Assembly: GCA_963709325.1 (NCBI GenBank)
Contig: CAVPVV010000003.1
Span: 2,886,638-2,950,637 of the forward strand
From: an uncultured Acidobacteriota bacterium
GTDB taxonomy: Bacteria; Acidobacteriota; Vicinamibacteria; Vicinamibacterales; UBA2999
DNA: 64,000 nucleotides
Direction: 5' to 3'
A program made the translations under genes and the position numbers. The notes below the pieces were generated by a model. The model did no database searches. It worked only from the letters and a program-made list of their open reading frames with translations, and was not told the DNA's origin. Position 1 is the stretch's first letter; the number at the start of each line of letters is the position of its first letter. This document shows, piece by piece, positions 1 to 22,939 of the stretch.

Positions 1-3000
1 CTCTGCCAGGTTCAGCGCAGACTCCAGCGCCTCGAGCGCTACTTGCTCGAGTTCGTTTCGTGGAGCGACGCGATTCGGAGTCGAGTGGCTGACCGCCACC
101 CAGGGGCTCGGAAGGGACCGCCGGTCGACCTTTCCGTTTGGCAGCAGGGGAAGCGTCGCAATTTCGACGAAGTGCTGCGGAATCATGTAATCGGGCAACC
201 GTTCGCGGAGGTGAGAGCGAAGAGTGGCCGGTTCGGGGACAGCCTGCCGAGGGACGATGTAGGCAACGAGTCGGACGTCCCCAGGAGCGGCTTCGTGAGT
301 CTCCACGACAGCACCTTGAATCGAGGAGTGCTCCGCGAGACAGGCTTCGATCTCACCGGGTTCGATACGGTAGCCGCGAACCTTGATCTGAAAATCGAGC
401 CGGCCTTGATGCTCGAGCAGTTGGTCGTTGCGCCATTTTCCGCGATCGCCGGTACGATAGAGTCGGCTCGAACTGTGAGCCGCGAACGGATCAATCGCAA
501 AGCGTTTGCTGGTCAGGTCTGGACGTTCGAAGTAACCGGAAGTCACGCCCTCACCGCCAATGCAAATTTCGCCGGGCACGCCTATCGGGCAGGGCTGACC
601 ACCCGGACCGAGGACCCAAATCGATGTGTTCGCGATCGGACGGCCGATCGCGACACCGCTCTCGTTCACGACCGCGGCGTCCACTTTCCAGACTGCCGAC
701 CACACGGTCGTTTCAGTAGGACCATACATGTTCCAGACCTCGCTGCTTCGCTCGAGAAGCACTCTAGCGAGATCCGGGGGCAAGGTTTCGCCGCCGACCA
801 GGGCCTTGAAGGCGCCGCCCGGCCAGCCGGCGTCGATCACACTGCGCCACATTCCGGGCGTCGCCTGCATGATCGTTGCGCCAGTCCGCTCGAGCAACAG
901 GCCCAGCTCGCGGCCATCCATTGCGGTCTCACGAGGGACGATGATTGCCTCAGCTCCGACCGTCAACGGGAGCATGAGCTCGAGCACGGAGATGTCAAAT
1001 GACAACGTCGTAACCGCTGCGAGACGGTCGTTGATATTGATTCCCGGCTCACGCGCCATCGCGCATAGGAAGTTGACCACGGCGCGGTGCGGAACGACGA
1101 CACCCTTCGGAGCACCGGTCGAGCCGGAGGTGTAGATGACGTAGGCAGGAGTCTCGGGGTCGCAATCGTTCGGACTCTCGGGATGCACGGTCATCGGCTG
1201 TTCCAGCCATGCCGTGTTGACATCGAGGTTGATGACCCTGCCTGCGACATCGGCTCGCCACGCTCGCGGCGCCGCTTTCTGATGCGATTCGGTTATGAGG
1301 AATGCCAGGTTCGCGTCCGCAGCGTAGTAGGCCAGTCGGGCCGGTGGAAACCCCGGGTCGAGTGGGACGTAGGCGCCACCTGCCCTGAGTACCCCGATCA
1401 GCGCCGTGATCGTGTCGAGGCCGCGCGTCATGCACAGCCCCACCCGATCACCAGGCGTCAGGCCGCGAGCGCGCAGATAACGAGCCAACTGATTGGAACG
1501 GCGGTCGAGATCGGCGTAAGTCAGGCAGCGTCCGTCGCACGAAACCGCTACCCGATCCGGTGTCGATGCGGCTTGCCGTACGAATGCCGAGTACATCAAA
1601 TCGCTTCTTGGGAAATCAGTCGGGAGCGGCTGTAAAGCTTCCACTTCCCGGCGCAGCCCCGCCGATAGCCATGGCAAGGCTCCCAAAGGTAGTGAAGGAT
1701 CCGCCGCCACTGACTCGAGCAGCGACTCGTACGCGTCGAGCCACCGCTCGACGGAACGTTCATCGAAGAGGCCGGTATTGTATTGACATTCGAGCCGGAT
1801 CCCGTCGTCCACGTGCACGGCGTTCAAGGAGATCTCGAAGTTTTCGAACAGACGTGGAGTGGCCGAACATTCCACGGTGAGACCTGGAAATAAGTTCGAG
1901 CCGGGACGAATACCCGGATCAAGATTGAACATCGCGCTGACCAATGGCAGTCGGCTCGGATCCCTTCCGAGCGGCAGCTTCTTCAGCAACGTCCCATAGG
2001 TGAGCGCCTGATGTTCGAATGCGTCGAGCACGGTGGTCGACACGGATTGCAGGAAGTCGGTGAATGGCGTGTCCCGCTCCGCCCTGAGCCGTATTGGCAA
2101 CAGGTTGACGCAGTGCCCGACGAGCTCGGTCATACCGCTGGCCGCCTGCCCCGCCGCCGGAACGCCGATAACCAGGTCCTCCTGATCAGTCAGTCGGTGG
2201 ACAAGTGCGGCGAATGCGGCAAACAGCGTCGCAAATAGGCTGGATCGGGCCTGAGCGCCCAATCTGCGAACCGCGCTCACGACGTCGGCCCGGATATGGC
2301 GGTCAACCCGACGCGAATCGAACGTGCGCCGAGGTGGACGGGCCCTGTCCGAGGGAAGTTCGAGCGCCACGGATGCCGAACCCGCCAACGACTGAAGCCA
2401 GAATCGCTCGTGGTCCGCCATTTCAGGATTGGCTGCTTGTTCGGACGCCCACCTCACGTAGTCGGAGTAGCGCGCCGCGCTCGCCGGGGCGGCGCCGTCG
2501 CCCAGACGCTCACGGTACAGCGCCGCGAGATCCCGGGTAATGACACCCCACGACCACCCGTCGCACACGACATGGTGCGCGGTCATCAGGAGCAGATGAT
2601 CATCGGCACCGAGGCAGTAGCAGACCGCTCGAAACAGGGGACCTTGACTCAGATCAAACGGTTCCGACGCCGCGGCGGCTCTTTCCTGTGACAAGGTGGT
2701 CGCGCGCTGAACGCTGGTTTGGCCGCTCAGATCGACTATCGGCAGAATGAACGAACCTGGCGCCGCGATCAGCAGCTCGGCCCCGTCAGGATCGACGGTC
2801 GATCGCAACGATTGGTGGCGAGCGACCAATTGATTGATCCCCGCCGCCAGGGCGGCGATGTCGAGCGGGCCCCGGAGGCGAAACTCAACCGACTCATTGA
2901 AGGCTAGCGAAGCGTACCGCCCGAGCCGGCTCGCGAGCCACACTTCTACCTGCGCCGGGCTCAGAGGAACGACTTCCTCGAGAAACCATCCCGGGCCCGA

Positions 3001-3036
3001 ATCCGTGGCGGCAGGTTCCTGGTGTGGTGAGCTCAT
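1..3036 (-). CDS. Non-ribosomal peptide synthetase module (condensation - adenylation - start of carrier domain); 3' end lies beyond position 1
   Basis: Absent from the ORF track because it has no stop inside the window. The minus frame with first-base coordinate mod 3 = 0 is the only frame with no listed sub-ORF between 1 and 3036. ATG at 3036-3034 overlaps the TGA of the upstream megasynthase (tcat 3033-3036 = ATGA). Own translation: MSSPHQEPAATDSGPGWFLEEVVPLSPAQVEVWLASRL (C-domain N-terminal motif); AHHVVCDGWSWGV (HHxxxDG, ~2545-2585); VIYTSGSTGAPKG (A3, ~1100-1140); LPNGKVDRRSLP (A10, ~110-144); then the first residues of a carrier domain. Plus-strand ORFs 43..1002 and 626..1135 are its antisense shadow. 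Confidence 0.85.
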   Translation of the reverse strand, partial: MSSPHQEPAATDSGPGWFLEEVVPLSPAQVEVWLASRLGRYASLAFNESVEFRLRGPLDIAALAAGINQLVARHQSLRSTVDPDGAELLIAAPGSFILPIVDLSGQTSVQRATTLSQERAAAASEPFDLSQGPLFRAVCYCLGADDHLLLMTAHHVVCDGWSWGVITRDLAALYRERLGDGAAPASAARYSDYVRWASEQAANPEMADHERFWLQSLAGSASVALELPSDRARPPRRTFDSRRVDRHIRADVVSAVRRLGAQARSSLFATLFAAFAALVHRLTDQEDLVIGVPAAGQAASGMTELVGHCVNLLPIRLRAERDTPFTDFLQSVSTTVLDAFEHQALTYGTLLKKLPLGRDPSRLPLVSAMFNLDPGIRPGSNLFPGLTVECSATPRLFENFEISLNAVHVDDGIRLECQYNTGLFDERSVERWLDAYESLLESVAADPSLPLGALPWLSAGLRREVEALQPLPTDFPRSDLMYSAFVRQAASTPDRVAVSCDGRCLTYADLDRRSNQLARYLRARGLTPGDRVGLCMTRGLDTITALIGVLRAGGAYVPLDPGFPPARLAYYAADANLAFLITESHQKAAPRAWRADVAGRVINLDVNTAWLEQPMTVHPESPNDCDPETPAYVIYTSGSTGAPKGVVVPHRAVVNFLCAMAREPGININDRLAAVTTLSFDISVLELMLPLTVGAEAIIVPRETAMDGRELGLLLERTGATIMQATPGMWRSVIDAGWPGGAFKALVGGETLPPDLARVLLERSSEVWNMYGPTETTVWSAVWKVDAAVVNESGVAIGRPIANTSIWVLGPGGQPCPIGVPGEICIGGEGVTSGYFERPDLTSKRFAIDPFAAHSSSRLYRTGDRGKWRNDQLLEHQGRLDFQIKVRGYRIEPGEIEACLAEHSSIQGAVVETHEAAPGDVRLVAYIVPRQAVPEPATLRSHLRERLPDYMIPQHFVEIATLPLLPNGKVDRRSLPSPWVAVSHSTPNRVAPRNELEQVALEALESALNLAE

Positions 3037-6000
3037 GCCTTGGCGGCAACCTTCGCCGGGTCATATTTCGAGTATTTACTTGGCGCCTTGCCATCGGGAA
3101 CGAACCATGCCGGCTTGCCCTCGTTATCACGACAAAGTCGTGCGTCGGCGACTGGCGGACGCGATCTGTCCATGGCTTCGGTCGGTTCGACCCGCGTCGG
3201 CAGAAACCCGCCCTCCTGCAGTTCGGCAATCGAGTTCTTGAAGGCGGAGACCATCACGTCAACCTCCCCTGCCCCATGTGCGGTTGTCATGAAACACGGA
3301 AAGTTGTCGAGAATGTGAACTCCGCGACTACGCATCATCGCAAAGAGCAGGTCTTGAAACGGATGATCTTCGAGCCACGCAACCCGCCACAGTGATCCAC
3401 AGTGGCTAACCGAAATCGGGGCGCCCACCCGTTTACAGAACGCGTTCAACTCGCGCACCATCGTCTCCGTCGTCCGGTTCAAGGTCGTCTGGAGAGTGCC
3501 GCCCGCCGCCTTCAGATGGACCAGCGTCGCCTTGGCCGCGGCCAACGCGAGTGGATGCCGCACAAACGTCCCCGCGAAGTAGGTCACTCCGACCGTCGGA
3601 ATCGAGTCGTCGCCGAACTGCCACGACCCTCCGTCCAGTGCGTCCATGAAGTCGCGCCTGCCTGCCACCACCCCGATCGGCATCCCCCCGCCGATGACTT
3701 TACCGTAGCTCGCCAAATCCGCGTTTACACCGAACATCGCCTGGACGCCGCCCTGATGCAGACGAAATCCGGTGATCACTTCATCGAAGATCAGGCAAAC
3801 GCCGCAGCGTTGGGTGGCCGCGCGGAGCTGCTTCAGAAACTCGACCGGCTGGAACTCGGGCCGACGGCTTTGCACCGGCTCGACGAGCACCGCCGCCAAA
3901 TCGTCAGCATGGGCGTGAATGTATTCCAATGCCTCAGGGGAACCGTACTCGAGCACGCGCACGTCACCGAACATTCCCGCCATGATGCCAGGGGCTCCGG
4001 GAATGGCCTTTCCGCCTCTGCCACCGCGCACGACGACCTCGTCGAAGGTTCCGTGATACGACCCAGCGAACAACACAACTGTACTGCGACCGGTCACCGT
4101 GCGGGCGATGCGAATCGCGGCCATCACGGCCTCCGAACCCGTATTGCACAGCGCGGCGCGGTCGAACCCGGTCATCTCGCAGACCAATCTTGCGACTTCA
4201 CCCGCCAGTGGGTGCTGGGGGCCGATATCGTAACCCGTGTCCAGCTGGCTTCGAATCGCATCGGTCACGAAGTCGGGTCGCCACCCAAAAAGGTTCACGC
4301 CGAAGCCGTTCAGCGCGTCGACATACTCGTTTCCATCGACGTCCCACATGCGGGCGCCCTGCGAGCGCTCCATCACGATCTGATATGTAATTTCCTTCGT
4401 TATCGGGCGAAATCCATTGACGGTGCGAGGGTCTGCCAGATGACCACGATGCTCTGAGGCGTACGCCTTGCTTTGGACAGTCTTAGCTACGTAGCGCTTG
4501 ACAAACGCATCGAACCGGGCCTTCTGGCGGTCGGTGAGGGCGTTCGCCTCCGTGTGAATGCGTGCGATCGCGCCGAATGCCTTCTTGACGTCGTATCGTA
4601 CCTGGCGGAGATCGTCGGCAGTTCGCATTGAGTGAGGAACGGTAGCCGCGGGCTGGGCCTCGGAGCCGGCGGCGGCCAGGGATGGGCGCCCCGTGCCACT
4701 GCCGATCTGGCTGGGCCTGTCTAAACTGACGCTGGCGAGCAGGGCTAGCTGTTGGGACATCAACTCCATTTGTTGGCGAATGACCTGCTGAATGGGCGAC
4801 TCGCCCTGGTCGTTCGCGAATTGTGCGGCGGCGGGACCCGCAGATAGCGCTTCCGACGAGCCGGGTTCGGGCCCCTGTGAAGCTGCCACGGCGGCCACGG
4901 CGGTTACCGGCTCCATCGGCATCAGCCGGTTTAGGTGCCCGGCCAAGTCTCGGAGATTTCGATACTGCTCCATCAGCTCTCGAAATGTGATTGGAACCTT
5001 GAACCGCTTCTTGAGCATGGCAGCGGCTTGGGTGAGGACGAGTGAATCGAGACCCAATTCGATGAAACTCACGGACTCGTCCGCTTCGGAAAGGTCCAGT
5101 CCTGAAATGTCTTCGAAGAATCCGCGCAGCTCGGCGATCAGGCCCGGTATTGGTAATGCAGAAGGGGCCTTAGTGGGTTCGCTCACGGTCCTCTCTTGGC
5201 CTAATCGAGCCGAGCCGTCCGGATCAGCCGTTGGGACAACGGGGTTTCCGATAGACGCGGAAATCGAGACCATTGCATCCGACACATGGGGTATTGCCGA
5301 CTTCGCCGACGGAGGATCCAGCCAGAGTCTCTGGCGCTCGAACGGATAGGTCGGCAAGACTATCCGGTGTCTCAAATTTGAGGCTGACGTGGCAGGTTCC
5401 GATGCTTCAATGCCGGCCGTCCAGAGTTCGCCCAAGGCCAACAGCAATTGCGACGTCTCCAGTTCTGGCGAGTCGGCCATACACGGAACCGCGATCGAAC
5501 CCGGTCGGCGGCCACCGTGCTGGCGAACGAGGGTCGAGAGCGTGTCGCGGGGGCCGAGTTCGACGAAGGCCGCGTCTTCATGTCGAGCGATGCAATTCCG
5601 GACCGCCCCGGAAAAGCGAACAGGTTCCCTGAGGTGACGCCCCCAATAGCCTGGGTCGATCGCATCACTCGCCGTGAGCCAGGTTCCGGTCAACGTTGAG
5701 ATGATCGGCACCTGAGGGGCCCTCAGGTGTGCCGTCTCCACCTCGCAGTTGAACGGTGCCACAGCCCCGTCCATCATCGAGGAATGGAACGCGTGAGAGG
5801 TCTGTAGCAGGCGAGTCATGACGCCTTCAGCCTCGAGCACGTCCCTGAATGCGTTGACGTCAACGGTCGGTCCGGACACGACGGAGGCGCTCGGGCCGTT
5901 TTCAGCGGCAACGCAAAGGCGGGCGGGAAGGCGGGATGACAGAGGATCAGCCGGCAGTCGCACGGAGAGCATGCTTCCCGCGGGCAAATCCTGCATAAGC

Positions 6001-9000
6001 CGGCCTCGGAACGCCACTAGCCGTGCAGCATCTTGCAACGACATGACACCGGCCACGACGGCGGCGACGAACTCGCCAACACTATGGCCAATCAGCGCGG
6101 CGGGGCGGACGTCACGCGCCTCCAGGGTTCGAGCGAGCGCATATTCGAGGCAAAAGGTGGCTGGCTGTGTCGTCGCCGTTCCCGTCAAGGCGTTGGCGTC
6201 GCCTGAAAACATCCTCGCCAAGAGATCGAAGCCCGCGTGCTTCGACGCACTCTCGGCAGCCTCGTCCAACGCGTCGCGAAAGGTTCGATCACCGTCGTGC
6301 AACCCGCGCCCCATCCCCGCGTACTGGGCACCTTGGCCCGGAAACAGCCAGATTAGGGGCGGTATTGTCGCGCCCAAGGACCGGGAGACGCGATGCCGGT
6401 GCGTCGGCTCGCTCAAGACGTCGATCGCAGCGTCGACCGAACCAGCGACAAGGGCCAACCGCTCGGGAAATCGGCTTCGTCCTTCTCTCAGTGTGTAGGC
6501 GACATCAGCGAGATTGGTATTCGGATGAGCCTTCAAGTGTTCGGCCAATTGCGCCGCCATCGTCCCGAGCGCAGAGGGAGTTCTGGCCGACAACAACAAC
6601 AACTCGGGACTGGTTGAAGGGCCGACCTCGGGTCGATGAGGACCTTCTTCTAGGACGAGGTGGACGTTAGTGCCGCCGACCCCGAAGGAGCTTACACCGG
6701 CACGCCGAGGCTCCTTCGCTCGCGGCCACGGAGTCAAAGCCGTATTGACGAGGAACGGACTGGTCGCAAAGTCGATTGCCTGATTTGGCTTCTCGAAATT
6801 CACGCTGGGCGGCAGCATCTCATGGGAAAGAGCCAGGGCTGTCTTGATCACTCCGGCCGCGCCGGCGGCGGTGACCAGGTGGCCGACGTTGCTCTTGACG
6901 GACCCGATCCGGCAAAATCCCCGATCCGGCGTCGTCCGGCGAAAAGCCCGGGTGAGCGCCTCGATCTCAACCGGGTCACCGAGCGGCGTGGCCGTGCCAT
7001 GAGCCTCGATATAGGACACAGTGCGCGGATTGATGCCTGCAGCCTCGTAGGCGGCCGCGATCCCCGCGGCCTGTCCGCTTATGCTCGGCGCCGTGAAACT
7101 AGCCTTGTCACGGCCGTCGTTGTTGACAGCCAGGCCCCGAATGACCGCGTACACCATGTCACCGTCGGCGACGGCGTCGCCCAACCGCTTGAGCAGCACC
7201 ACGGCGGCGCCGTCGCTGAACACCGTACCCTGGGCGGCTGCATCGAAGGGTCGTGTCCGTCCATCGGGGGACAGCATCGCGCCTTCCTGGTATAGATAGC
7301 CGCTCCGCGGCGGGCAGGTGATCGCAACCCCTCCGGCAAGCGCCATGTCGCATTGATGCGATCTGAGCGCCGCGAACGCCTGCGCGATCGCAACTAGGGA
7401 CGTGGAGCAAGCGGTATGCACGCTGACGGCGGGCCCGGTCAGGTTCAGTCGGCTTGCGACGCGGGTCGCGATATAGTCCTTCTCATTGGCCAACATTACC
7501 TGAAATTCACCGAGCTTCTCGATTCGATCGGGATGATAGAGAACGTGCTTCTGGTAGTAGGTCGCGTTGTACATCCCCGCGAAGATGCCAATCGGCATGC
7601 GTGCTCGGTCCGGTGCATGTCCGCCGCGCTCCAAGCATTCCCAGCAGAGCTCGAGGAAGACTCGGTGCTGCGGGTCCATAACTTCCGCCTCACGAGCCGA
7701 GATGCCAAAGAACGTCGAATCAAACCTCTCGACGTCAGCAATTACACCACGCCGCTTAACGTACGCCGGATCCGCCGTGAGCGCTGGCGGCAACGAGGGA
7801 TCAAGTTCACTGTCCTCAAAGGATGTGATCGTCTCGCGTCCGTCACGCAGGTTGCGCCAGAACTCCTCCACAGTGGTCGCGCCTGGGAACCGGCCGGCCA
7901 TCGCGATGATGGCGACCGGCTCGTCGGATGGCGCGGGCCCCTTTCGACTCCTCGCCAGGCGCCGGGATTCGACGACCGACTCGGTCCGATCGACGATTGC
8001 ACGAGCAATAGCCTCGGGAGTCGGTTCGCGGAAGAAAAGATTCGTGGACAGGCCGCTCCGGTCCGGGTCCGGTAGCCGTCCGAGAACCTTCAACACCAGT
8101 AAGGAGTCACCCCCGAGGTCGAAGAAGTTGTCGAAGCGGCCCACGCGCTCGATGCCAAGCTCGGTGGCGAATGCCGCGCAGACCCGGGCCTCGATCTCGC
8201 CAACCGGTTCCGTGTACGGCTGGATGAGATCAGGCCTCTCAATCGGCGGCGGTGGCAGCGCGCGTCGATCGACCTTCCCGTTGACCGTCCGGGGTAGCGC
8301 ATCTAACCACACATAAGTCGCTGGCACCATGAAATCGGGCAGACGCGCGGCCAGATGCGCGCGCATCTGTTCCAAGGGGACCGGCTGGTCCCTGGCGATC
8401 GCATACGCAATGAGACGATGCGTCCCATTCGCGAGCTTCTCTGGCACCACAGCGCATGCTTTGATGCCGGCATGGGCGGCGAGTTGCGCCTCAATCTCAG
8501 CCGGCTCGATGCGGAACCCACGGATCTTCACTTGATCGTCCAAACGGCCAACGAACTCGATGATCCCATCCGCGGTGCAACTGGCAAGATCGCCGGTGCG
8601 GTACAGCCGCTCCCCACGCTGATCAAAGGGATTGGCGACGAACCGCTCATTCGTCAGCTCGGGTTGCCCGAGGTACCCGCGAGCGAGGCCACGTCCACCC
8701 AAATAGAGTTCGCCTACCTGCCCAGGCTCGAGGAGCTCCATCGAAGGGCCGAGGATGTACGCCTCCGTATCGGTAATAGGACGACCGATTGGCACAGCTC
8801 GAGCCTCCGCCGGCAAATCAGCGGGAATGCGAAATGTCGTCGCGAAGGTAGTGCATTCCGTGGGCCCGTACCCATTGATCAACATGACGGCCGGTGCCGC
8901 CGCGAGGAACCGCCGCACGTGCGGCACCGATAAAGCCTCGCCGCCAATGAGAAGTTCCTTCAAGGCCGCCAAATGCGTCGGATCGTCGTCCACGACCGCA

Positions 9001-9788
9001 TTGAACAGCGCTGCCGTGAGCCAGGCCGTCGTGACGCGATGTTTCTCGATCGTGCTCCTGAGCCCGGCAGCGGTCGGGAGATCCTCGTCGTGAATGACGC
9101 ATACACCACCGTTCAAGAGTGGAGCCCAGAGTTCGAAGGACGAGGCATCAAACCCCAGTGGTGCTGCTTGCATCACGACGCAGTCCGGTCCCAGGCTCAC
9201 ATACTTCGCATCGATGACAAGCCGGAGAACGGAGTCATGGCAGATCTCGATGCCTTTGGGGACGCCGGTCGAGCCTGATGTATACATCACATAGGCAAGC
9301 GATGCACCATCGCCGGGGTCGCAGAGTTGCGGCGCGGGTGCGCTGTCCGCCTGCTCGAGCAGCAGGGTCGGCAGATGCGATGGAAAACGCTCTCGCTGGG
9401 CTGCGGTCGTGACGACCGCCGCGGTGTGCGCGTCGTTGATCATCAATGCCAAGCGGTCGGTCGGGAATGCCAGTTCAAGTGGCATATATGCGGCGCCGGC
9501 TTTCAAAGTCCCCAAAATGCAAGTGACGGCTTCGAACGAGCGAGGGACTGCGATCGCGACAGTGGATCCGGGTCGGACCCCGAGATGCAGCAGGGCCGCC
9601 GCGACGCGATCCGATCGCGCATCCAGATCGCCGTAGGTCCATTCGTGTGCACGGTGAACGAGCGCCACTCGCTGCGGACCCTCGGCAGCGACACGCCGAA
9701 AGATCTCGTGGATCATTCCCCCCTTACCGCCAGGGAGCGACGTGGTATCCCTGGCGTGCACGCGATTAGGAACCTTGGAAGCGGACAT
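3033..9788 (-). CDS. Hybrid NRPS-PKS megasynthase: A - T - KS - AT - T - class-III (GSA-type) aminotransferase
   Basis: Intact 2251-aa ORF. Motifs with approximate forward coordinates: A domain LKAGAAYMPLE, FDASSFE (~9131-9160), YTSGSTGVPKG (~9256-9290), NGYGPTE, YRTGD, GRLDDQVKIRGFRIE, NGKVDRRAL. PCP FFDLGGDSLL (~8096-8133). KS VHTACSTSLVA (~7391-7425), EAHGTATPLGDP, GSVKSNVGHL. AT FPGQGAQYAGMG, GHSVGEF (~6069-6095), SHAFHS. ACP ELGLDSL (~5040-5069). Aminotransferase NTGSEAVMAAIRIAR, FDEVITGFR, YGKVIGGGMP (~3683-3712). No KR, DH, ER or TE motifs seen. Confidence 0.93.
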   Translation of the reverse strand: MSASKVPNRVHARDTTSLPGGKGGMIHEIFRRVAAEGPQRVALVHRAHEWTYGDLDARSDRVAAALLHLGVRPGSTVAIAVPRSFEAVTCILGTLKAGAAYMPLELAFPTDRLALMINDAHTAAVVTTAAQRERFPSHLPTLLLEQADSAPAPQLCDPGDGASLAYVMYTSGSTGVPKGIEICHDSVLRLVIDAKYVSLGPDCVVMQAAPLGFDASSFELWAPLLNGGVCVIHDEDLPTAAGLRSTIEKHRVTTAWLTAALFNAVVDDDPTHLAALKELLIGGEALSVPHVRRFLAAAPAVMLINGYGPTECTTFATTFRIPADLPAEARAVPIGRPITDTEAYILGPSMELLEPGQVGELYLGGRGLARGYLGQPELTNERFVANPFDQRGERLYRTGDLASCTADGIIEFVGRLDDQVKIRGFRIEPAEIEAQLAAHAGIKACAVVPEKLANGTHRLIAYAIARDQPVPLEQMRAHLAARLPDFMVPATYVWLDALPRTVNGKVDRRALPPPPIERPDLIQPYTEPVGEIEARVCAAFATELGIERVGRFDNFFDLGGDSLLVLKVLGRLPDPDRSGLSTNLFFREPTPEAIARAIVDRTESVVESRRLARSRKGPAPSDEPVAIIAMAGRFPGATTVEEFWRNLRDGRETITSFEDSELDPSLPPALTADPAYVKRRGVIADVERFDSTFFGISAREAEVMDPQHRVFLELCWECLERGGHAPDRARMPIGIFAGMYNATYYQKHVLYHPDRIEKLGEFQVMLANEKDYIATRVASRLNLTGPAVSVHTACSTSLVAIAQAFAALRSHQCDMALAGGVAITCPPRSGYLYQEGAMLSPDGRTRPFDAAAQGTVFSDGAAVVLLKRLGDAVADGDMVYAVIRGLAVNNDGRDKASFTAPSISGQAAGIAAAYEAAGINPRTVSYIEAHGTATPLGDPVEIEALTRAFRRTTPDRGFCRIGSVKSNVGHLVTAAGAAGVIKTALALSHEMLPPSVNFEKPNQAIDFATSPFLVNTALTPWPRAKEPRRAGVSSFGVGGTNVHLVLEEGPHRPEVGPSTSPELLLLSARTPSALGTMAAQLAEHLKAHPNTNLADVAYTLREGRSRFPERLALVAGSVDAAIDVLSEPTHRHRVSRSLGATIPPLIWLFPGQGAQYAGMGRGLHDGDRTFRDALDEAAESASKHAGFDLLARMFSGDANALTGTATTQPATFCLEYALARTLEARDVRPAALIGHSVGEFVAAVVAGVMSLQDAARLVAFRGRLMQDLPAGSMLSVRLPADPLSSRLPARLCVAAENGPSASVVSGPTVDVNAFRDVLEAEGVMTRLLQTSHAFHSSMMDGAVAPFNCEVETAHLRAPQVPIISTLTGTWLTASDAIDPGYWGRHLREPVRFSGAVRNCIARHEDAAFVELGPRDTLSTLVRQHGGRRPGSIAVPCMADSPELETSQLLLALGELWTAGIEASEPATSASNLRHRIVLPTYPFERQRLWLDPPSAKSAIPHVSDAMVSISASIGNPVVPTADPDGSARLGQERTVSEPTKAPSALPIPGLIAELRGFFEDISGLDLSEADESVSFIELGLDSLVLTQAAAMLKKRFKVPITFRELMEQYRNLRDLAGHLNRLMPMEPVTAVAAVAASQGPEPGSSEALSAGPAAAQFANDQGESPIQQVIRQQMELMSQQLALLASVSLDRPSQIGSGTGRPSLAAAGSEAQPAATVPHSMRTADDLRQVRYDVKKAFGAIARIHTEANALTDRQKARFDAFVKRYVAKTVQSKAYASEHRGHLADPRTVNGFRPITKEITYQIVMERSQGARMWDVDGNEYVDALNGFGVNLFGWRPDFVTDAIRSQLDTGYDIGPQHPLAGEVARLVCEMTGFDRAALCNTGSEAVMAAIRIARTVTGRSTVVLFAGSYHGTFDEVVVRGGRGGKAIPGAPGIMAGMFGDVRVLEYGSPEALEYIHAHADDLAAVLVEPVQSRRPEFQPVEFLKQLRAATQRCGVCLIFDEVITGFRLHQGGVQAMFGVNADLASYGKVIGGGMPIGVVAGRRDFMDALDGGSWQFGDDSIPTVGVTYFAGTFVRHPLALAAAKATLVHLKAAGGTLQTTLNRTTETMVRELNAFCKRVGAPISVSHCGSLWRVAWLEDHPFQDLLFAMMRSRGVHILDNFPCFMTTAHGAGEVDVMVSAFKNSIAELQEGGFLPTRVEPTEAMDRSRPPVADARLCRDNEGKPAWFVPDGKAPSKYSKYDPAKVAAKA

Positions 9789-9913: not shown

Positions 9914-11173
9914 TCAAAACGGACGTCGGATTGTCTCCGCGTCGGCCTGCACACTCCCGACTAAACCGACGGTGCCGGAAGGGTCGGCCAGGCGCCCGAT
10001 AGCCGAGGCCGGGACTATATCGAAATGAAACCCGAAGCGTACGTTCAACGCGGTTAACAAGTCGCGCGCCCACAAACCGTTCCAGACAGTCCCTGCGTGG
10101 TTGTCGGCGAGAATCGCGTTTCGCGGATCGTCACCTCTGGTGTACTCGATGGCAATGGGACCGCCCAGCGACAAGCTTCGATACGCCGGACGGCCTTGTT
10201 CATCGCGGGCGCCCCAGACGTGTTTGAACCACGCCCGGTCGTCCCAGAAAAGGACGTTTCCATCCTGCCCCGACATTTCTCGAAGCCGCTCATCGTAGAC
10301 ATCCAACACCGCCGAGATGTTGTCGAGCTCGCGTCGGGACCGCCACTTTTCCAGCCACGGAACCAGATCGGCGTTATTGAGGACGCCGACCAGGACGATC
10401 CGGGTGGTACTGTGATGCCGCCGAATTTCGGTAACTGTACGCTCAACGTAGTTCGCACAGTCGATTGCCAGTTGCCGCGCATCGGGCGTAAGACCGCCGT
10501 TGGCAAACCGGTCGAGGACCACTTCTTTTCCCAGGTCGTTGATCCCGATACGGATCAACACGATTCCGTTCTGCCAGGCCTCAGGGTCTCCATCCATGAA
10601 GTACACCAATCGTTGGGCCTGACGTGACATGCCATCCAATAGGTTGTGACAACCGGCGCCCGAGACGGCAAAGTTGTACCGAAAGTCTTGTTTGCGAGGG
10701 GCCCGCCCTTCAAGGCCAACCCAGGTCAGAAGTTCAGCGACTGTTCCGCGATTCCCCCAGACGCCCCATGCGCCCATGTCGATTTGATGGGCGTTGAAGC
10801 GCTGGATGATCTCCGTCCACTGGTAGCTGACCGATCGGAATGCCCCACCGCGAAGTTCCGGCTCCGGGAGCAGGACTGAGTCGTGGAAGGAGTGAGAGTC
10901 GGAGTCGCCAAGTACTCCGAACTTGACGATGCTGGAGGAAACGGCCGGTGACCTGCTGCACGACTCCCCGAACATGGCCAACCCCCAGCTGCCGATGACC
11001 AGCGCGAGGACCCGCGGGAGAGAAGTCAATCCGTGCCAGTAACGTCGGCCTGGTTCCATGACGGCATGGTTTTTCCTCAAAACCGTGTCTGCAGGGCTGT
11101 GCTCCATCGGACCGTACGATCGACAACTCGACACTGATACCAAGCAAAGTCCGCACCCGAAACTGCCGGCCAA
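9914..11173 (-). CDS. SGNH/GDSL-family hydrolase with N-terminal membrane/signal segment
   Basis: 419-aa ORF. Block I FGVLGDSDSHSF, block III IRIGINDLG, C-terminal ADNHAG (DxxH-like), hydrophobic LPRVLALVIGSWGLAMF near the N-terminus. The ORF start at 11173 is a TTG; internal ATGs at 11107 or 11059 are equally possible true starts. Confidence 0.7.
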   Translation of the reverse strand: MAGSFGCGLCLVSVSSCRSYGPMEHSPADTVLRKNHAVMEPGRRYWHGLTSLPRVLALVIGSWGLAMFGESCSRSPAVSSSIVKFGVLGDSDSHSFHDSVLLPEPELRGGAFRSVSYQWTEIIQRFNAHQIDMGAWGVWGNRGTVAELLTWVGLEGRAPRKQDFRYNFAVSGAGCHNLLDGMSRQAQRLVYFMDGDPEAWQNGIVLIRIGINDLGKEVVLDRFANGGLTPDARQLAIDCANYVERTVTEIRRHHSTTRIVLVGVLNNADLVPWLEKWRSRRELDNISAVLDVYDERLREMSGQDGNVLFWDDRAWFKHVWGARDEQGRPAYRSLSLGGPIAIEYTRGDDPRNAILADNHAGTVWNGLWARDLLTALNVRFGFHFDIVPASAIGRLADPSGTVGLVGSVQADAETIRRPF

Positions 11174-11358: not shown

Positions 11359-12330
11359 ATGGGTTCTGGAGAAGTGGCACCGGTCAAAGCGGCACACGAA
11401 GGATCAGCGTTCGGGGCCGCGTACCCGACGCGAGACTGCTGCACAATCTCGCCGGCAGGAGAGCGCCCCTTCTCCACGCGCCGAATCGGCGCGCTCGAGC
11501 ATACGTTTCATCGGCACCCGTTGCTGCAACTCTCACCACTCGCGAACCTCGCCAGGGCCTTGTATCCGACGCGCCAGTGTCGATTCATGTCACCTGGGAC
11601 AACCCAGGGCTCTCCTTTCAGCCATGCTGACCACAGCTTCGACGGTAAATCGATCGACGATGTCTTCAACCGAATCGAGGAGCCTGGATCTTGGGTGGCT
11701 CTCTATAATGTGGAGACTCACCCGGACTACAAGGTTCTGTTGGATAACGTGATTCGTGAGGTGAGTCTTCTAGTCACCTCAGAGCAGCCCGGGATAACCA
11801 AAGTCGGCGGATTCATCTTCATCTCGGCGCCGCCGTCCGTGACACCGTTTCACATCGATCGTGAAAACAATTTCTGGCTTCAGATCGCCGGCCGGAAGAC
11901 CATCAACGTCTGGGATCACTGCGACCGAGACGTGGTGAGCGGAGGTGACGTCGAGGAGTTCATCCTGTCCGGATCTCTCGCTGGTGTCAGACTCGACGCC
12001 GACCACCGATCACGCAGCCAGGAGTTTGACGCAGGTCCCGGAGACGGGGTTTATTTCCCGAGCACGTCACCGCACATGACCCGCAGCAACAGTGACTGGG
12101 TGACCCCAGGAAACGGGGTTTCAATCTCAATGGGAGTTGTGTTCTACACTTCCGCAACTCGGCGCGACGCCTACGTGCATGCATTCAATCGCGTGTTGCG
12201 GAAGGCTCGACTGTCACCCCGAGAACCCGGCCGTTCGCAATGGCTCGATCGTGTCAAATATCCGCTCGGCCTCGCGACGATCTGGGGCCGAAGACGGCTG
12301 CGCGGCCATCAGCCGAACGCCAGTTTCTGA
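11359..12330 (+). CDS. Cupin-8/JmjC-like protein (probable Fe(II)/2-oxoglutarate oxygenase, aspartyl/asparaginyl beta-hydroxylase-like)
   Basis: 323-aa ORF divergent from the SGNH gene. Segment FHRHPLLQLSPLANLARAL ... GGFIFISAPPSVTPFHIDRENNFWLQIAGRKTINVW matches the cupin-8 pattern, including an HxD iron-ligand motif (FHIDRE). Family assignment is from memory, not a search. Confidence 0.6.
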   Translation: MGSGEVAPVKAAHEGSAFGAAYPTRDCCTISPAGERPFSTRRIGALEHTFHRHPLLQLSPLANLARALYPTRQCRFMSPGTTQGSPFSHADHSFDGKSIDDVFNRIEEPGSWVALYNVETHPDYKVLLDNVIREVSLLVTSEQPGITKVGGFIFISAPPSVTPFHIDRENNFWLQIAGRKTINVWDHCDRDVVSGGDVEEFILSGSLAGVRLDADHRSRSQEFDAGPGDGVYFPSTSPHMTRSNSDWVTPGNGVSISMGVVFYTSATRRDAYVHAFNRVLRKARLSPREPGRSQWLDRVKYPLGLATIWGRRRLRGHQPNASF

Positions 12331-12380: not shown

Positions 12381-13254
12381 ATGAGGTATTCAAGGATTCG
12401 GAGCATAGTCGACAAGCTCGAGCGAATACCGGTAATCCGCAGCCGTCGCCGAGCAGCCGTCGAGCGCCGCTTCGAAAACAACACAAACCAGAATCTGTTC
12501 CGAGGCGTGTACGAGTCGTTTACCGCAGCGTTGGCTTCAGCACCGACAACGCGTCCCCTCGGTTACGACAATCCTGAATCGGCTGACCTGTATCTTAATC
12601 GGCTGTGGGTGGACGATTACGATTACCCCTCCATCTTCTGGCTTGCGGACGGGATCACGAACGGGATGAGGAGGATAGCGGATCTCGGAGGTTCAGTGGG
12701 AATCAAATACTTGGCGTTCCGACGGATCACAAGATTCCCAGAGGACATCGCGTGGCGTGTCATCAGAGGTACCGGCGGTCGCCGATCGCGGTCGCCGGCT
12801 CGCTGCTGAAAGCGCGACTGCCAGTGTGCTGCAATTCTCGACCGACACCGACGCCGCCGATGGCTCAGACGTGCTCTTCGCGTCAGGTTCGTTGCAGTAC
12901 CTTCCTACGTCGTTGTCAGATATCCTGGCGCGTCTGAAACAGAAACCGCGACGGTTGATTGTCAATACCGTCCCGATTCATCCGACTGACAGCTTTTTCA
13001 CGCTGAACAGCATCGGCACGGCGTATTGCGCGTACCGGGTACAAGCTCGAGCCCCGTTCGTGACCTCGATAGAAGCGCAGGGCTATCGAATGCGCGATCA
13101 ATGGAGAAATCTCGGCAAGACCATGATCGTACCGTTCGCACCGTCACTGAGTCTTGATCACTATTCAGGTTTCTGCTTCGACCGGTTCGACGACGCTCTC
13201 GCTGCCGACAGGCCCACGCTGTTGAGCGGCTCTAAAACTGACAGTTGTCGGTGA
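12381..13254 (+). pseudogene. TIGR04325-like putative methyltransferase, interrupted by one frame change near 12760
   Basis: ATG at 12381. N-terminal part (ORF 12240..12809, frame 0): MRYSRIRSIVDKLERIPV...NLFRGVYESFTAALASAP..GYDNPESADLY...AWRVI. It continues in frame 1 (ORF 12757..13254): EVPAVADRGRRLAAE...LFASGSLQYLPTSLSDILARLKQKPRRLIVNTVPIH. Joined length of about 290 aa fits the family. The shift is equivalent to one extra base. Confidence 0.6.
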
Positions 13255-13648: not shown

Positions 13649-14530
13649 TCATGCTCCGGAGTCGGAGACAGGGTGTTCGGTGAGGCGCTTTCGTCCTACG
13701 ATCACCCTAGCGGTACCGGCGGCATCGTACATCGCCACGACCGGCGCGTCGTAGTGGCGGGCGCGCCCAAAAAGAAGTGTCACTTGGCGGTCCTGGCCGG
13801 CACCAATCTCGAACAGTAGATGTCCGCCAGGCTTGAGGAACGGCACGGCGTCGCGCAAGACGCGTTGGAAAATCGAGACGCCGTAGGGCCCTCCGTCGAA
13901 CGCCTCGCGTGGCTCGTGCACCAACAGCTCGGCGCGTGCGTTCGATAGTTTGCCGGTCGAGATGTACGGGGGATTGCAGACCACGATATCGATCGTACCC
14001 TCGAGCCCTCGCTCGCCGAGTGGCTCGAACAAATCTCCTTGCAATACGGTGACTCGTCCGCCAAGCCGAAGGTGTTCGACGTTGGCGCGCGCTACCTCAA
14101 CCGCACCGTCGGTAAGGTCCGATGCCCACACCTGAAGCGTTGGATGATTTGCCGCCAGCGCACAGGCGAGATTTCCGGATCCACAGCACATATCGATGGC
14201 GCGCAGGCGGGTCGAGGAGTCGCAGGAGTTCAGCAACTCGAGCGAGGTGCGCGCCAGTAGCTCCGTCTCTTCCCGCGGAACGAGGGCGCCCGGCGCCACG
14301 ATGAGGTCCACACCCATGAACCGCGGTCCTTCCGGTGAGATAGGCGAGCGGGCGTCCCGGCGACGCGTTCGGCAGCCAACTCGAGAGCCCGTGAGGCAGA
14401 GGCCTCCGGCACCGACCTGGCGAATGGCGGCTTCCAGGAGGCGTATCGCTTCGTCGGTCGGGTCCGGCCATTCCGGCGGCGGCAAGGAGCCGCACGATTC
14501 GTCCACGGGGCCTTGCGGAGGGAGACTCAT
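13649..14530 (-). CDS. PrmC/HemK-like N5-glutamine-type SAM-dependent methyltransferase
   Basis: ATG 14530-14528 overlaps the TGA of the upstream ligase (ATGA). C-terminal 200 aa: DLIVAPGALVPREETELL, AIDMCCGSGNLACALA (SAM motif I), DIVVCNPPYI (NPPY motif). The frame is open throughout, but the conserved GRPLAYLTGR segment is readable only in other frames at ~14290-14410 (see findings). Confidence 0.7.
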   Translation of the reverse strand: MSLPPQGPVDESCGSLPPPEWPDPTDEAIRLLEAAIRQVGAGGLCLTGSRVGCRTRRRDARSPISPEGPRFMGVDLIVAPGALVPREETELLARTSLELLNSCDSSTRLRAIDMCCGSGNLACALAANHPTLQVWASDLTDGAVEVARANVEHLRLGGRVTVLQGDLFEPLGERGLEGTIDIVVCNPPYISTGKLSNARAELLVHEPREAFDGGPYGVSIFQRVLRDAVPFLKPGGHLLFEIGAGQDRQVTLLFGRARHYDAPVVAMYDAAGTARVIVGRKRLTEHPVSDSGA

Positions 14531-16091
14531 GACAGGCCGGTCTTCTTGATCTTTCCGGTCGTGGTCTTCGGCAGCTCGGCGATGATCTCGACGAACTTCG
14601 GCACCATGAAATTCTCGAGCCGCTTGCGCACATTCACCGAGAATGTCGCGTTCCGTCACGGTCGAGCCGGCATCGAGCACGACCAGTGCCTTCACCGCCT
14701 GTCCGAGGATATCGTCCGGGACACCGATCACCGCGACTTCCCTGACGCCCGGTGATGTTGACGATGACGCTCTCCACTTCTTTCGGCGCGACCTTCTCGC
14801 CACGCGACTTGATGATGTCGTCCATCCGTCCGACGAAATACAGGTAGCCTTCTTCGTCGAGCTTGCAGTAGTCACCGGTGTATAGCACCATCTCGCCCGG
14901 CAGCGGCCCGGGACGCAGTTTCCTGGCCGTTTCTTCGGGCTTCTCCCAGTAGCCGCGCATCACGGTGGCGCCTCGGATCACGAGCTGCCCGACTTCTCCT
15001 GGACCGACGCGCTCGTCTCTGCTCGTTGACGATCCAGAGCTCCGTGTTGGGAATCGGCACTCCGACCGAGAGCGGCTTGCGGTCGATGTCTTCGGGAGGC
15101 AGATAGGTGCAACGCTTGCACTCCGTCAGCCCATACATCGAAAAGACCTTGGCGCTTGGGAAACATCCGGCGAAGCATGTCGATGTGCTTGGTCGACAGC
15201 GCCGCCGCGGTGTTCGAGACGTAGCGAATCTTCGAAAAGTCGTACTGTTCGATATTTCGAAGGCCGCCGAGAATCGCGAAGATCGTCGGAACGCCCGGAA
15301 ACCCGGTGACCCCTTCGTCGACAACACGCCTTCAGGACTTCGGCCGGATAGGTGAACGAGCGCTCCAGGACGAGCCGTGCACCGACCCGGAAGGCCATGA
15401 TCATCTGATACAGCCCGTAGTCGAACGAGAGCGGCAGCAGGCCGACGATCACGTCGTCCTCTACGTTCTCGAGGTAGGTGCTTACCGACGTGGCCGCGGT
15501 CAGCATGTTGCGATGCGTCAGCATGACGCCCTTGGGATCGCCCGTGCTGCCCGACGTGTAGATGATCGACGCCAGATCGATGTCGATGCTTCGTCGCGGC
15601 GGCGGCGCTGCAACAGGGCCCTCGCCGAGCGCAGCTTCCCAACCGACGACCTCCGCTACCGCGCCGAGCCGCGACCAGCTCCATCGGACCGGACACGACC
15701 GCCGCCGACGAGATGTTCTGCCTTCTGCGACGGCGGGGACCAGCGTCGAAGCCAGGTGCGCGTCGCTGATGATCGCCCGGGCCCTGCAGTCGTTGAGCAG
15801 ATAGGCCAGCTTGTCCTCCTTGGTCTGTGGATTGACCATCGACACGACCGCATTGGCCTTCAGCACTGCCCAGAACGAGACGACGGCTGCAACCGTGTTG
15901 TCGGCAAAGACGACGACGCGGTCGCCGCGCCGCACGCCGCGTCGCACCAGCGCGTGGGCCAGGGCATTCGATTGGTGATTCAGCTCGGCGTAGGTGAGAC
16001 GCTGACCCTGACAGACCAGGGCCACCTTGTTCGGCAGGCGCTCCGCCGAGTGAATCAGGTAGTCGTGTAGCTGGGGGATACCGTTGTGCAT
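14527..16091 (-). pseudogene. Acyl-CoA ligase (AMP-forming), exosortase-system-associated type; at least 5 frame changes
   Basis: Recognisable pieces in successive frames. MHNGIPQLHDYLIHSAERLPNKVALV...IIYTSGSTGDPKGVMLTHRN...ERSFTYPAEVLK (frame 2). VVDEGVTGFPGVPTIFAILGG...STKHIDMLRRMFPK (frame 1). KVFSMYGLTECKRCTYLPPEDIDRKPLSVGVPIPNTELWIVNE (frame 0). DERVGPGEVGQLVIRGATVMRGYWEKPEETA...YTGDYCKLDEEGYLYFVGRMDDIIKSRGEKVAPKEVE (frame 2). VREVAVIGVPDDILGQAVKALVVL (frame 1). KRLENFMVPKFVEIIAELPKTTTGKIKKTGLS-stop (frame 0). Confidence 0.8.
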
Positions 16092-16094
16092 ATC

Positions 16095-16986
16095 GAGGAG
16101 ACACCGGAGAGGCGAGGTCGCGCGAGAGCGCGACAGCCGCGCCGTCCCGAGCACCTCGCGTGACCGTGCCGAACCGAAACTCGCGCAGCAGCCGGCGTAG
16201 CCGCGCCTCGGTCTTGTTCAGATTGTAGTAATGCCGTAGGCGCGACGCAGCGCCAACGCGGATTCGTGGCTGGTGCGGGTCAATCTCCCACGGATGAAGA
16301 TAGAAGATTGCCGGGCATTGCTCGGCGTCATTCAGAGCCTTCATCCCGCCTGCCTCGTCCAGTCGTAGGGCAGCAACCGAAAGTAACCGCCGCCGCCGAA
16401 CGGCAGATTGACACCCGCCCGTCGAATCGTGGACCCCGGAAGTTCCCAGATGCTGCCGTCCACCCGTTCGACGCATTCGATGTGCCTGGACCAGGCGGGA
16501 ATCCCGTATCGATCGTGGCGGATCGGATAGATGCTGCAATCGTACCTGTAGCCCTCGCTCACGAGCACGTCGAAGCGCCCAGAGCGATCGCTCGGTAATC
16601 GAGAAGCTCGGTGCTCTGATACCCGTAGATGCGCGATCGCCGGCCGCGTTTTCGATGGCCGACCTGGCGCGCCACAAATCGAGCGCGGAATGCCTCCGGC
16701 GTGCTGTCGTACACGAGGCCGTGCTCGTGGCTGTGCGACGCCAGTTCATGACCGGCGCGGTGAATGCGCTGCACGAGTTCGGGAAATCGTTCCGCGACCC
16801 ATCCCAAGACGAAAAACGTGGCATGGACGCCGGCGTGCTCGAAGATGCCAAGCAGCCTGTCGGTGTTCTGGCAGACCCGGCTCTCCATCGACTCCCACTC
16901 GGACCGACGTACACAACCTGGCGAACGCCGATACCTGAAAGTAGTCTTCCACGTCGACGGTAAGGGCGTTCAGGATCGTGGGTCAT
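16095..16986 (-). pseudogene. Polysaccharide deacetylase, PEP-CTERM-locus subfamily; multiple frame changes (3' boundary approximate)
   Basis: ATG at 16986. Pieces: ILNALTVDVEDYFQVSAFA; SMESRVCQNTDRLLGIFEHAGVHATFFVLGWVAERFPELVQRIHRAGHELASHSHEHG; IENAAGDR..GIRAPSFSITERSLWAL; VSEGYRYDCSIYPIRHDRYGIPAW...LPFGGGGYFRLLPY; KALNDAEQCPAIFYLHPWEIDPHQPRI...RHYYNLNKTEARLRRLLREFRFGTV. These lie in frames 0>2>1>0>2>0. Confidence 0.75.
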
Positions 16987-16988
16987 CA

Positions 16989-18397: not shown

Positions 18398-19307
18398 CAG
18401 AGCCTCTTGCTCTTCGGGTCGGGGACTGCCGTAATAGCCGTAATATGCGATTTCGTCTTCGCGAGCGACGCCGTTGAGCACCACGCCCGAGGATCCGATC
18501 TCGCCCGAGGCCGTCGATTGCCCTCTGGACGGCGCTGAATTGTGTTTTCCCGGCGTGAACGACGAACAGCGTGCCGCCGACCATCTCCGTGAGCAGGTGC
18601 GGCATCGGCGGTGGCTCCTACAGGAGGGGAGTCGAGGATCACCCAATCGAACCGAGTGATGGCCTCGCTCAGAATCTGCCGCATGCGCGGAGACGTACAG
18701 GGCCTCGAGTGAATTGGCGATCGGCTGCCCGGCCGGCAGCAACGTCAGACGGGGCGAGAGATTGATGAGCGCGAGCCTCTGTTCCGTCGTAGCCACAAGC
18801 GCGTCACTGAGCCCGCAGCCCGCAGTCGGATCGATGACACTCGGGGATGGACGGACGTCGAAGATCAGCATCCACGAGCAGCACGCGGGCGCGATACGAT
18901 TCAGCCAGCACGAAGGCGACGTTGATGGCGGTGAGGGTCTTGCCGTCGCCAGGCATCGCGCTGGTCACCATCACACTGCGTAACCCGTTCGCGGCTTGGG
19001 CATGATGGAGCACACCGGCCAGTCGGCGGAACTGTTCGACCAACGCCGGGTCCCCCTCCGAGCCGCTCGCCAGACACTCCCGCCACTTGGAGGAAAAACC
19101 CTGCACGCCGGCACTAGCCACCATCGGACCGGCGTCCGGTAGCAGTGCGAGTTTTCGAGCGGCGGATGGTGCGGGCTCCTCCTCTGGCCGGTCCGGCCCG
19201 TTCTCGGGCCATGCCGACGTAAAGTGCCGCTGCCCGTCCGGGCTGGATTCTCCCGCCTTCCGGCCGACCTCGTCGACGCGTCGTAGCGCTTCGTGGATTC
19301 GACTCAC
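18397..19307 (-). pseudogene. Exopolysaccharide-locus P-loop ATPase / BY-type tyrosine autokinase-like protein; about 4 frame changes
   Basis: GTG at 19307. Pieces: MSRIHEALRR...SVMVTSAMPGDGKTLTAINVAFVLAESYRARVLLVDADLRRPS (Walker A and A'); VIDPTAGCGLSDALV...LTLLPAGQPIANSLEAL; MRQILSEAITRFDWVILDSPPVG (Walker B); LLTEMVGGTLFVVHAGKTQFSAVQRAIDGLGRDRILG; VVLNGVAREDEIAYYGYYGSP (Tyr cluster). Frames run 2>1>0>2>1. Confidence 0.8.
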
Positions 19308-19317
19308 ACGTTCTCCA

Positions 19318-20925: not shown

Positions 20926-20935
20926 ACGCGCTCCG

Positions 20936-22288: not shown

Positions 22289-22304
22289 ACCAGTACCATC
22301 GAGG

Positions 22305-22934: not shown

Positions 22935-22939
22935 GACAT

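Follow-up and report, generated by a model that had tools for sequence, protein, structure and literature searches.

The window analysed here is a stretch of 64,000 nucleotides from an uncultured Acidobacteriota bacterium (assembly GCA_963709325.1, contig CAVPVV010000003.1, positions 2,886,638 to 2,950,637 of the forward strand). Its left end carries two coupled open reading frames (ORFs) on the minus strand, a hybrid megasynthase that joins nonribosomal peptide synthetase (NRPS) and polyketide synthase (PKS) domains, and the beginning of a further NRPS gene. This pair, the product that it may make and the place where that product may be used are the subject of this report. The domains are adenylation (A), peptidyl or acyl carrier (T, ACP), ketosynthase (KS), acyltransferase (AT), aminotransferase (AMT) with its pyridoxal phosphate (PLP) site, and condensation (C), and they are arranged as follows (aa, residue numbers in the respective ORF).

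3033..9788, minus strand: megasynthase ORF, A-T-KS-AT-ACP-AMT, 2251 codons from the first ATG
8274..9701, minus strand: adenylation domain A1, aa 30-505 (Pfam, motifs, specificity code)
7989..8201, minus strand: peptidyl carrier domain T1, Ser of GGDSL at aa 562 (Pfam PP-binding, motif)
6792..7922, minus strand: ketosynthase, aa 623-999, triad of Cys (TACSTS), His (HGTAT) and His (NVGH)
6408..6788, minus strand: KS-AT linker (Pfam linker families)
5520..6350, minus strand: acyltransferase, Acyl_transf_1 at aa 1147-1423, GHSVG and HAFH
4932..5132, minus strand: acyl carrier domain T2, aa 1553-1619, LGLDSL at aa 1578-1583 (Pfam PP-binding, motif)
3195..4553, minus strand: AMT domain of MycA type, aa ~1746-2198, Asp in FDEVITGFR, PLP Lys in YGKVIGGG (aa 2030)
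3033..3036, minus strand: ATGA overlap of the megasynthase stop (TGA 3033-3035) and the NRPS start (ATG 3034-3036)
1..3036, minus strand: NRPS ORF, C-A-(T), 1012 codons, open to the left edge of the window
1663..2979, minus strand: C domain, aa 20-458, HHVVCDG (Pfam, motif)
130..1581, minus strand: second adenylation domain A2, aa 486-969, code DILQLGMVWK (Pfam, specificity code)
1..84, minus strand: T domain, first ~28 residues (Pfam)

An earlier note on this DNA, made from its letters, had described one intact ORF of 2251 codons with A, T, KS, AT, ACP and aminotransferase domains, and both ORF calling and Pfam bore this out. AMP-binding was placed at residues 30-373 (E 9e-81), AMP-binding_C at 431-505 and Aminotran_3 at 1803-2160 (E 1.5e-45). 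Every catalytic motif was present in a single copy: YTSGSTG, FDASSFE, NGYGPTE and NGKVDR in A1, GGDSL in T1, TACSTS, HGTAT and NVGH in the KS, GHSVG and HAFH in the AT, LGLDSL in the ACP, and FDEVITGFR and YGKVIGGG in the AMT. The true start is probably Met25 at window position 9716, which would give a protein of 2227 aa, because a Shine-Dalgarno-like run, AAGGGGGGA, lies just 5' of it and because the database entry P0001 (2227 aa) equals the megasynthase from Met25 onwards at 100% identity. The KS with its Cys-His-His triad and a carrier domain stand directly upstream of the AMT. No ketoreductase (KR), dehydratase (DH) or enoylreductase (ER) family was among the Pfam matches on the megasynthase, and the AT-ACP and ACP-AMT linkers held neither a GxGxxG (Rossmann) nor an HxxxGxxxxP (DH) motif, so that the reported absence of these reductive domains stands. 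HAFH is the malonyl-type motif of acyltransferases.

The order KS-AT-ACP-AMT-C is the same as in MycA and ItuA, which raises the possibility of an ordinary iturin-like lipo-initiation module, with a fatty acid as the substrate of the first domain and a beta-amino fatty acid as the product. The nearest relative of the AMT, that of MycA, fits such a module as well, whereas the first domain does not. A1 passed the model TIGR01733 ("amino acid adenylation domain") with 407 bits at a cut-off of 317, while the fatty-acid ligase models gave 150-230 bits, far below their cut-offs of 476-780. Its closest solved relatives are NRPS adenylation domains, with LgrA at the top followed by SrfA-C and TycA. 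The specificity code was read by alignment to GrsA-PheA, which returned DAWTIAAICK at the canonical positions. This gave DAFWLGGTFK for A1 with Asp235 and Lys517 kept, and the code is identical at 9 of 10 positions to the classical valine code, reportedly set out by Stachelhaus in 1999 as DAFWIGGTFK. DALWLGGTFK or DAFWLGGTFK recurs in most of the best 120 homologues, and the starter code across lineages is mostly of the valine type, with some copies of threonine type (DFWNIGMVHK) and others proline-like, so that the position varies in the way of an amino-acid site. A1 is an amino-acid adenylation domain, as the earlier note had inferred of the loading domain, and its predicted specificity is of the valine type. 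A fatty-acyl ligase is thus ruled out at the sequence level by scores, relatives and code, and we regard lipo-initiation as scarcely credible.

The AMT matched the solved MycA aminotransferase (6kfm/6kfu) with 433 bits (E 2e-128) over ~450 residues, and glutamate-1-semialdehyde (GSA) aminomutases with ~182 bits. In the alignment to MycA, YGKVIGGG corresponds to YGKIIGGG with the PLP Lys and FDEVITGFR to MDEIITGFR with the Asp at the pyridine nitrogen, so that the PLP-binding residues, on which the earlier note had made its reading depend, are in place. The domain is accordingly classed as MycA-type, and transamination of an ACP-bound 3-ketoacyl chain is its predicted reaction. Directly downstream, at the start of the ATGA-coupled ORF, follows a C domain with HHVVCDG; the stop/start overlap had been reported from the letters, and it was seen again at 3033..3036. 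The predicted specificity of A2 is of the glycine type. The extraction of specificity residues that the earlier note had called for thus yielded a valine-type A1, a glycine-type A2 and a malonyl-type AT. Domain content, domain order and intact motifs can be read directly from the DNA, and from the choice of substrates onward we infer the pathway.

Both ORFs belong to a widespread family. The best 120 protein matches to the megasynthase were 55-65% identical, all with the same Pfam set, and came from Variovorax, Thiomonas, Hydrogenophaga, Piscinibacter and many metagenomes; the best match among GTDB species representatives was 58-59% identical. Scanning of species-representative genomes with the C-A protein gave 80 loci, which span Burkholderiales, Xanthomonadales (Dyella, Rhodanobacter, Frateuria, Lysobacter), Acidobacteria, Myxococcota, Planctomycetota and others. 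The pair of megasynthase and NRPS gene occurs in more than 50 species, and an ATGA or GTGA junction is conserved in 44 of 57 related loci. With domains mapped by tblastn, the complete order A-T-KS-AT-T-AMT followed by C-A-T-C-T was found in 41 of the 80 loci, several others being cut by contig ends, and at least 9 of the 80 end in C-A-T-C-A-T. The relatives' NRPS continues with T-C-T after C-A and has ~1660 aa in all. In that of Variovorax paradoxus (L017) we found C, A and T domains only and no thioesterase (TE), and its second C domain keeps an intact HHLVWDG. A TE and more modules had been expected to the left, whereas the relatives have just one extra C-T (or C-A-T) there and lack a TE. 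The second-module A code is almost always of the glycine type, as is the third where present, which suggests that A2 also loads the last T in the C-T version.

A variant stands somewhat apart: five loci from Acidobacteria and a Chitinispirillaceae metagenome-assembled genome (L069, L071, L074, L076 and L059) have an extra stand-alone A-T gene before the megasynthase, which is ~400 aa longer there, and one additional amino acid may be joined before the ketide-forming module.

The earlier note had not recognised the combination from any characterised pathway. No characterised cluster was found, but the layout is that of a conserved family and had been catalogued in a 2013 in-silico survey of PLP domains, which lists the Pedobacter heparinus protein C6XWU5 as "A-CP-KS-AT-CP-PLP1" with the prediction Nrp-Mal-Gly (PMC3870968). 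In the literature on Variovorax aminotransferases, Variovorax swarming and exopolysaccharide, exosortase-associated ligases, decarboxylases and hydrolases, exosortase NRPS/PKS, vicinal diamines and gamma-diamino compounds, no characterised pathway with the logic of amino-acid-primed beta-amination was found. Published antiSMASH results for a Variovorax genome include a "T1PKS, NRPS-like, NRPS" cluster for which the closest MIBiG entry, microsclerodermin, was only 21% similar (PMC10946135); this is probably the present cassette. The carenaemin cluster of Collimonas (PMC8313283) also contains KS/AT-AMT and was rejected as a match, as it is without an amino-acid loading module.

Downstream of the NRPS gene in the relatives lie genes that would fall to the left of the window edge here. 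Two alpha/beta-hydrolase genes in the fixed order hydr2-hydr1 were found in 53 of the 80 loci and a phosphopantetheinyl transferase (PPTase) in 49. The best family match of hydr2 is TIGR03101 and that of hydr1 is TIGR03100, the "exosortase A system-associated" hydrolases 2 and 1. A GxCSG/A elbow with a Cys nucleophile is present in all 53 hydr1 sequences, and 51 of the 53 hydr2 sequences have GxRxG without a nucleophile. Alpha/beta-hydrolases of the Cys type, such as SyrC/CmaE and polyhydroxyalkanoate synthase, carry out acyl transfer and not hydrolysis, and by this analogy hydr1 and hydr2 may be a thioester-forming acyltransferase with a non-catalytic partner. Sequence searches of the hydrolases, and of the JmjC-like protein encoded upstream of the megasynthase, against solved structures gave generic or insignificant matches only.

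The neighbourhood of the relatives points to polysaccharides, genes for which were found near the cassette in about ten separate lineages.

Variovorax loci: cassette leading into Wza, Wzc and an epimerase
Dyella (L037): JmjC-like, megasynthase, C-A-T-C-A-T, GT2, PgaB-like deacetylase, Wzy_C/PEP_O_lig-like, unknown ORF, stp2 GT4, in this order
Solilutibacter (L064): TIGR03013 XrtA-system glycosyltransferase just upstream, above its cut-off
Thauera (L056): deacetylase, Wzx-like and GT4 genes
Methylibium (L003): Poly_export exporter

The Dyella genes all have the same orientation, their stop and start codons overlap, and the hydrolase pair is absent from this locus. Furthermore, we surveyed 125 ORFs flanking 18 non-Variovorax loci, where alpha/beta-hydrolases (9) and PPTases (6) were the most frequent of the families recorded, followed by GT1/GT4 glycosyltransferases (4), polysaccharide deacetylases (4), GDSL proteins (3), cupin-8 proteins (3) and, more rarely, sugar transferases, exporters, Wzb-type phosphatases and ordinary thioesterases (2 each).

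We propose that both ORFs together form the core of an NRPS-PKS cassette, conserved and uncharacterised, the product of which would most likely be transferred to a surface glycan, and we give this reading a probability of about 0.5. Collinearity predicts a 3,4-diamino-acyl product. Valine would be loaded on T1, and the KS would join it with malonyl-ACP to 4-amino-5-methyl-3-oxohexanoyl-ACP. The MycA-type AMT would then replace the C3 keto group by an amine, and the resulting 3,4-diamino-5-methylhexanoyl thioester, a vicinal diamine, would be coupled to glycine by the C domain. To judge from the relatives, since the window ends there, the NRPS would continue with C-T and without a TE; the last T would probably be loaded with glycine as well, so that the tethered product would be diaminoacyl-Gly-Gly, a structure for which C11H22N4O4 with an [M+H]+ of ~275.17 was calculated. 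The Cys hydrolase would most likely take the chain from the last T as a thioester and hand it to an acceptor, most likely an exopolysaccharide or another cell-surface glycan, which would become decorated with amines; a sugar amine freed by the neighbouring deacetylase is a possible acceptor. Transfer to a surface glycan is favoured by the lack of a TE, by the pair of a Cys enzyme and a pseudo-enzyme, and by the operons shared with polysaccharide genes, and for these reasons we prefer it to a free metabolite.

The same facts can be read otherwise. The cassette may make a free diffusible small molecule, either the linear dicationic diaminoacyl-Gly-Gly or a lactam or diazepanedione formed through the terminal C domain; the hydrolase pair would then set it free by hydrolysis, and the polysaccharide genes would be neighbours by chance or through shared regulation alone. 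NRPS-PKS lines normally give free metabolites, many loci are without polysaccharide genes, the ordinary thioesterase genes of the flank survey (2 of 125 ORFs) lie near some loci, and in the window the exopolysaccharide (EPS) locus beside the intact megasynthase has decayed. On the other hand, the modal architecture has no TE, and Cys instead of Ser in all 53 hydr1 sequences next to a partner without a nucleophile would fit acyl transfer better than hydrolysis. Moreover, the Dyella NRPS is tightly operonic with GT2, deacetylase and ligase-like genes, and polysaccharide genes recur across about ten lineages. We consider a free product rather doubtful, though a serious contender.

In the window, the cassette is bordered upstream by accessory genes and by an EPS locus of the XrtA/PEP-CTERM type.

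9914..11173, minus strand: GDSL/SGNH-like hydrolase, same strand as the megasynthase and 125 bp upstream of it
11359..12330, plus strand: JmjC/cupin-8-like putative Fe(II)/2-oxoglutarate oxygenase, HxD...H present
12387..13254, plus strand: TIGR04325-family methyltransferase, two ORFs with one frameshift at ~12765
13652..24148, minus strand: XrtA/PEP-CTERM exopolysaccharide locus with ligase_PEP_1, XrtA deacetylase, TIGR03013 glycosyltransferase, tyrosine kinase, chain-length determinant, exporter and ATPase

These accessory genes recur with the cassette: JmjC-like homologues lie immediately upstream of the megasynthase in 12 loci, the TIGR04325-family methyltransferase is an accessory gene in 13 loci, and GDSL/SGNH-like homologues (39-43% identity) adjoin the megasynthase in three other genera. 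No sigma-70-like promoter was found between the GDSL gene and the megasynthase. Two further genes on the plus strand lie at the far end of the EPS locus; one encodes an FG-GAP/VCBS-repeat protein (24017-25804), the other a large beta-barrel protein of the outer membrane that includes a carboxypeptidase-regulatory-like domain (26093-28723), and a PEP-CTERM tail was found in neither. Within the locus, at 13652-14959 on the minus strand, a HemK/PrmC-like N5-glutamine methyltransferase domain (170 bits on TIGR03534, less than the cut-off) shares its reading frame with the C-terminal part of what is left of the exosortase-associated acyl-CoA ligase; the two may be truly fused or may have been joined by frameshifting.

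The GC content is 58-64% in positions 1-26000, which hold the NRPS-PKS and EPS genes, and 65-69% in 26000-64000, and third-position GC is lower in the first segment too. The segment 1-26000 may be a horizontally acquired island; no tRNA genes were found in the window, and no obvious mobile element at the GC border.

Several observations weigh against the reading as a glycan-decorating cassette. The substrates of A1 and A2 are code predictions, and the second A domain of many Variovorax copies (L009-L055) has DMPQ.GGVYK instead of the glycine-type DILQLGxVWK, a code to which no substrate could be assigned. The PPTase, the hydrolases and the C-T part were seen in relatives and would lie left of the window edge in the present genome. 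The hydrolases score below the NCBIfam cut-offs (hydr1 52-60 bits against 168, hydr2 92-96 bits against 203), and the Dyella-type loci are without the pair. Each polysaccharide family was matched by just 2-4 of the 125 flanking ORFs, so that the association is recurrent and not universal. In the window itself no exosortase gene or PEP-CTERM protein was seen, and a search for the PEP-CTERM tail pattern gave no convincing match.

The chemistry offers a further objection, as a free gamma-amino-beta-keto thioester could lactamise before transamination. On general chemical grounds a 4-amino-3-oxoacyl thioester is poised for closure of a five-membered ring, and a tetramic-acid-like lactam formed before or instead of transamination would mean that no vicinal diamine arises. 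In that case the AMT, A2, the two C domains and the later T domains would serve no purpose, yet dozens of species conserve all of them with their motifs intact, and we hold this outcome to be highly improbable.

The remaining objections concern the state of the source genome. The accessory methyltransferase is frameshifted: the alignment of a full-length homologue (from L062) runs in frame 3 as far as 12764 and resumes in frame 1 at 12766, which marks a single-base frameshift. The XrtA locus lies in at least 12 frame-shifted pieces between 13652 and 20865 on the minus strand, with the TIGR03013 glycosyltransferase and the XrtA polysaccharide deacetylase each spread over 3 frames, ligase_PEP_1 in at least 4 pieces, and both the chain-length determinant and the tyrosine kinase split. 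Random sequencing error is an unlikely cause of the frameshifts at 12.7-20.9 kb, because neither the adjoining 9.8 kb of NRPS-PKS nor the long genes at 26-64 kb show any interruption, and the frameshifts in the XrtA locus look like true gene decay. In addition, the protein collection lacks the source genome's downstream NRPS, for which the best match is 61% identical, while the megasynthase is present as P0001; the NRPS gene may be annotated as a pseudogene past the window edge, or its protein may just have been left out of the collection. Together with the lower GC of the first 26 kb, these features would suit a cassette that is a non-functional relic in the source genome despite its two large open ORFs, the absent NRPS entry in particular if a pseudogene call lies left of the window. 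Nevertheless, the NRPS-PKS genes run over 9.8 kb without a stop or frameshift and with all catalytic motifs intact, and the JmjC-like and GDSL-like accessory genes are intact as well. An uninterrupted core next to 8 kb with at least 12 frameshifts argues for continued selection on the core, and we judge a relic to be unlikely.

If the predictions hold, the cassette would be, as far as we found, the first assembly line known to place a beta-amine on a ketide primed by an amino acid. A 3,4-diamino acid building block was not found in any characterised pathway in the literature searched, and its transfer to a glycan would be a new mode of bacterial polysaccharide decoration. As chemistry, the prediction is moderately unusual, and what surprises more is the conserved link to polysaccharide and exosortase-type genes. 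The cassette also provides a testable lead on the role of the "exosortase A system-associated" hydrolases, and it is carried by culturable, genetically tractable bacteria such as Variovorax paradoxus and Dyella. A bolder extension, which we offer as a long shot, is that diaminoacyl-Gly-Gly is a handle grafted by the Cys-hydrolase and pseudo-hydrolase onto the glycan, where its amines would serve as the nucleophile for exosortase attachment of PEP-CTERM proteins. Such a handle would be a Gram-negative counterpart of the pentaglycine bridge of sortase and would explain the function of the XrtA ligase/carrier/hydrolase cassette. No function of the canonical form of that cassette was found in the literature, and neither the ligase nor the hydrolases appear in the 2006 PEP-CTERM paper.

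Among known systems, the XrtA cassette itself (ligase_PEP_1, carrier protein, PLP decarboxylase, hydrolase 2 and hydrolase 1; TIGR03098-TIGR03101) resembles the present one in carrier-based activation followed by hydrolase 2 and hydrolase 1 and in its location in polysaccharide loci, and in the window the NRPS-PKS genes adjoin XrtA-system genes, including a ligase_PEP_1 remnant, as frameshifted fragments. It differs in that a multi-module NRPS-PKS takes the place of the simple ligase and in that the hydrolases here are far under the family cut-offs. The identically laid out Pedobacter heparinus protein C6XWU5, likewise assigned to the GSA type and to Nrp-Mal-Gly, is a catalogue line without product, context or function (PMC3870968). 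MycA and ItuA of mycosubtilin and iturin share the succession of KS, carrier and AMT and then a C domain taking up the beta-aminoacyl chain, and the role of the MycA AMT was described in the same survey (PMC3870968). In contrast to these, the present cassette has a valine-type A domain as starter instead of a fatty-acyl ligase, a cis AT and two to three modules without a TE, and its predicted product is a 3,4-diamino acid instead of a beta-amino fatty acid. McyE and NdaF contain a cis-AT PKS module with a terminal AMT and a C domain after it, as here; however, their modules stand mid-chain in a long polyketide, include a C-methyltransferase and lack amino-acid priming. Statine-type A-T-KS-AT-KR-ACP lines likewise extend an amino acid by one malonyl unit and give 4-amino-3-hydroxy acids, whereas in the present cassette an AMT stands in the place of the KR and the 3-position is predicted to bear an amine and not a hydroxyl. 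In HMWP2 of yersiniabactin synthesis one A domain serves two carrier domains. The second C-T without its own A domain in the C-A-T-C-T of the 41 loci recalls this arrangement, the window itself ending in the first T, but HMWP2 works with cyclisation domains and cysteine, while here A2 would load both carriers with glycine.

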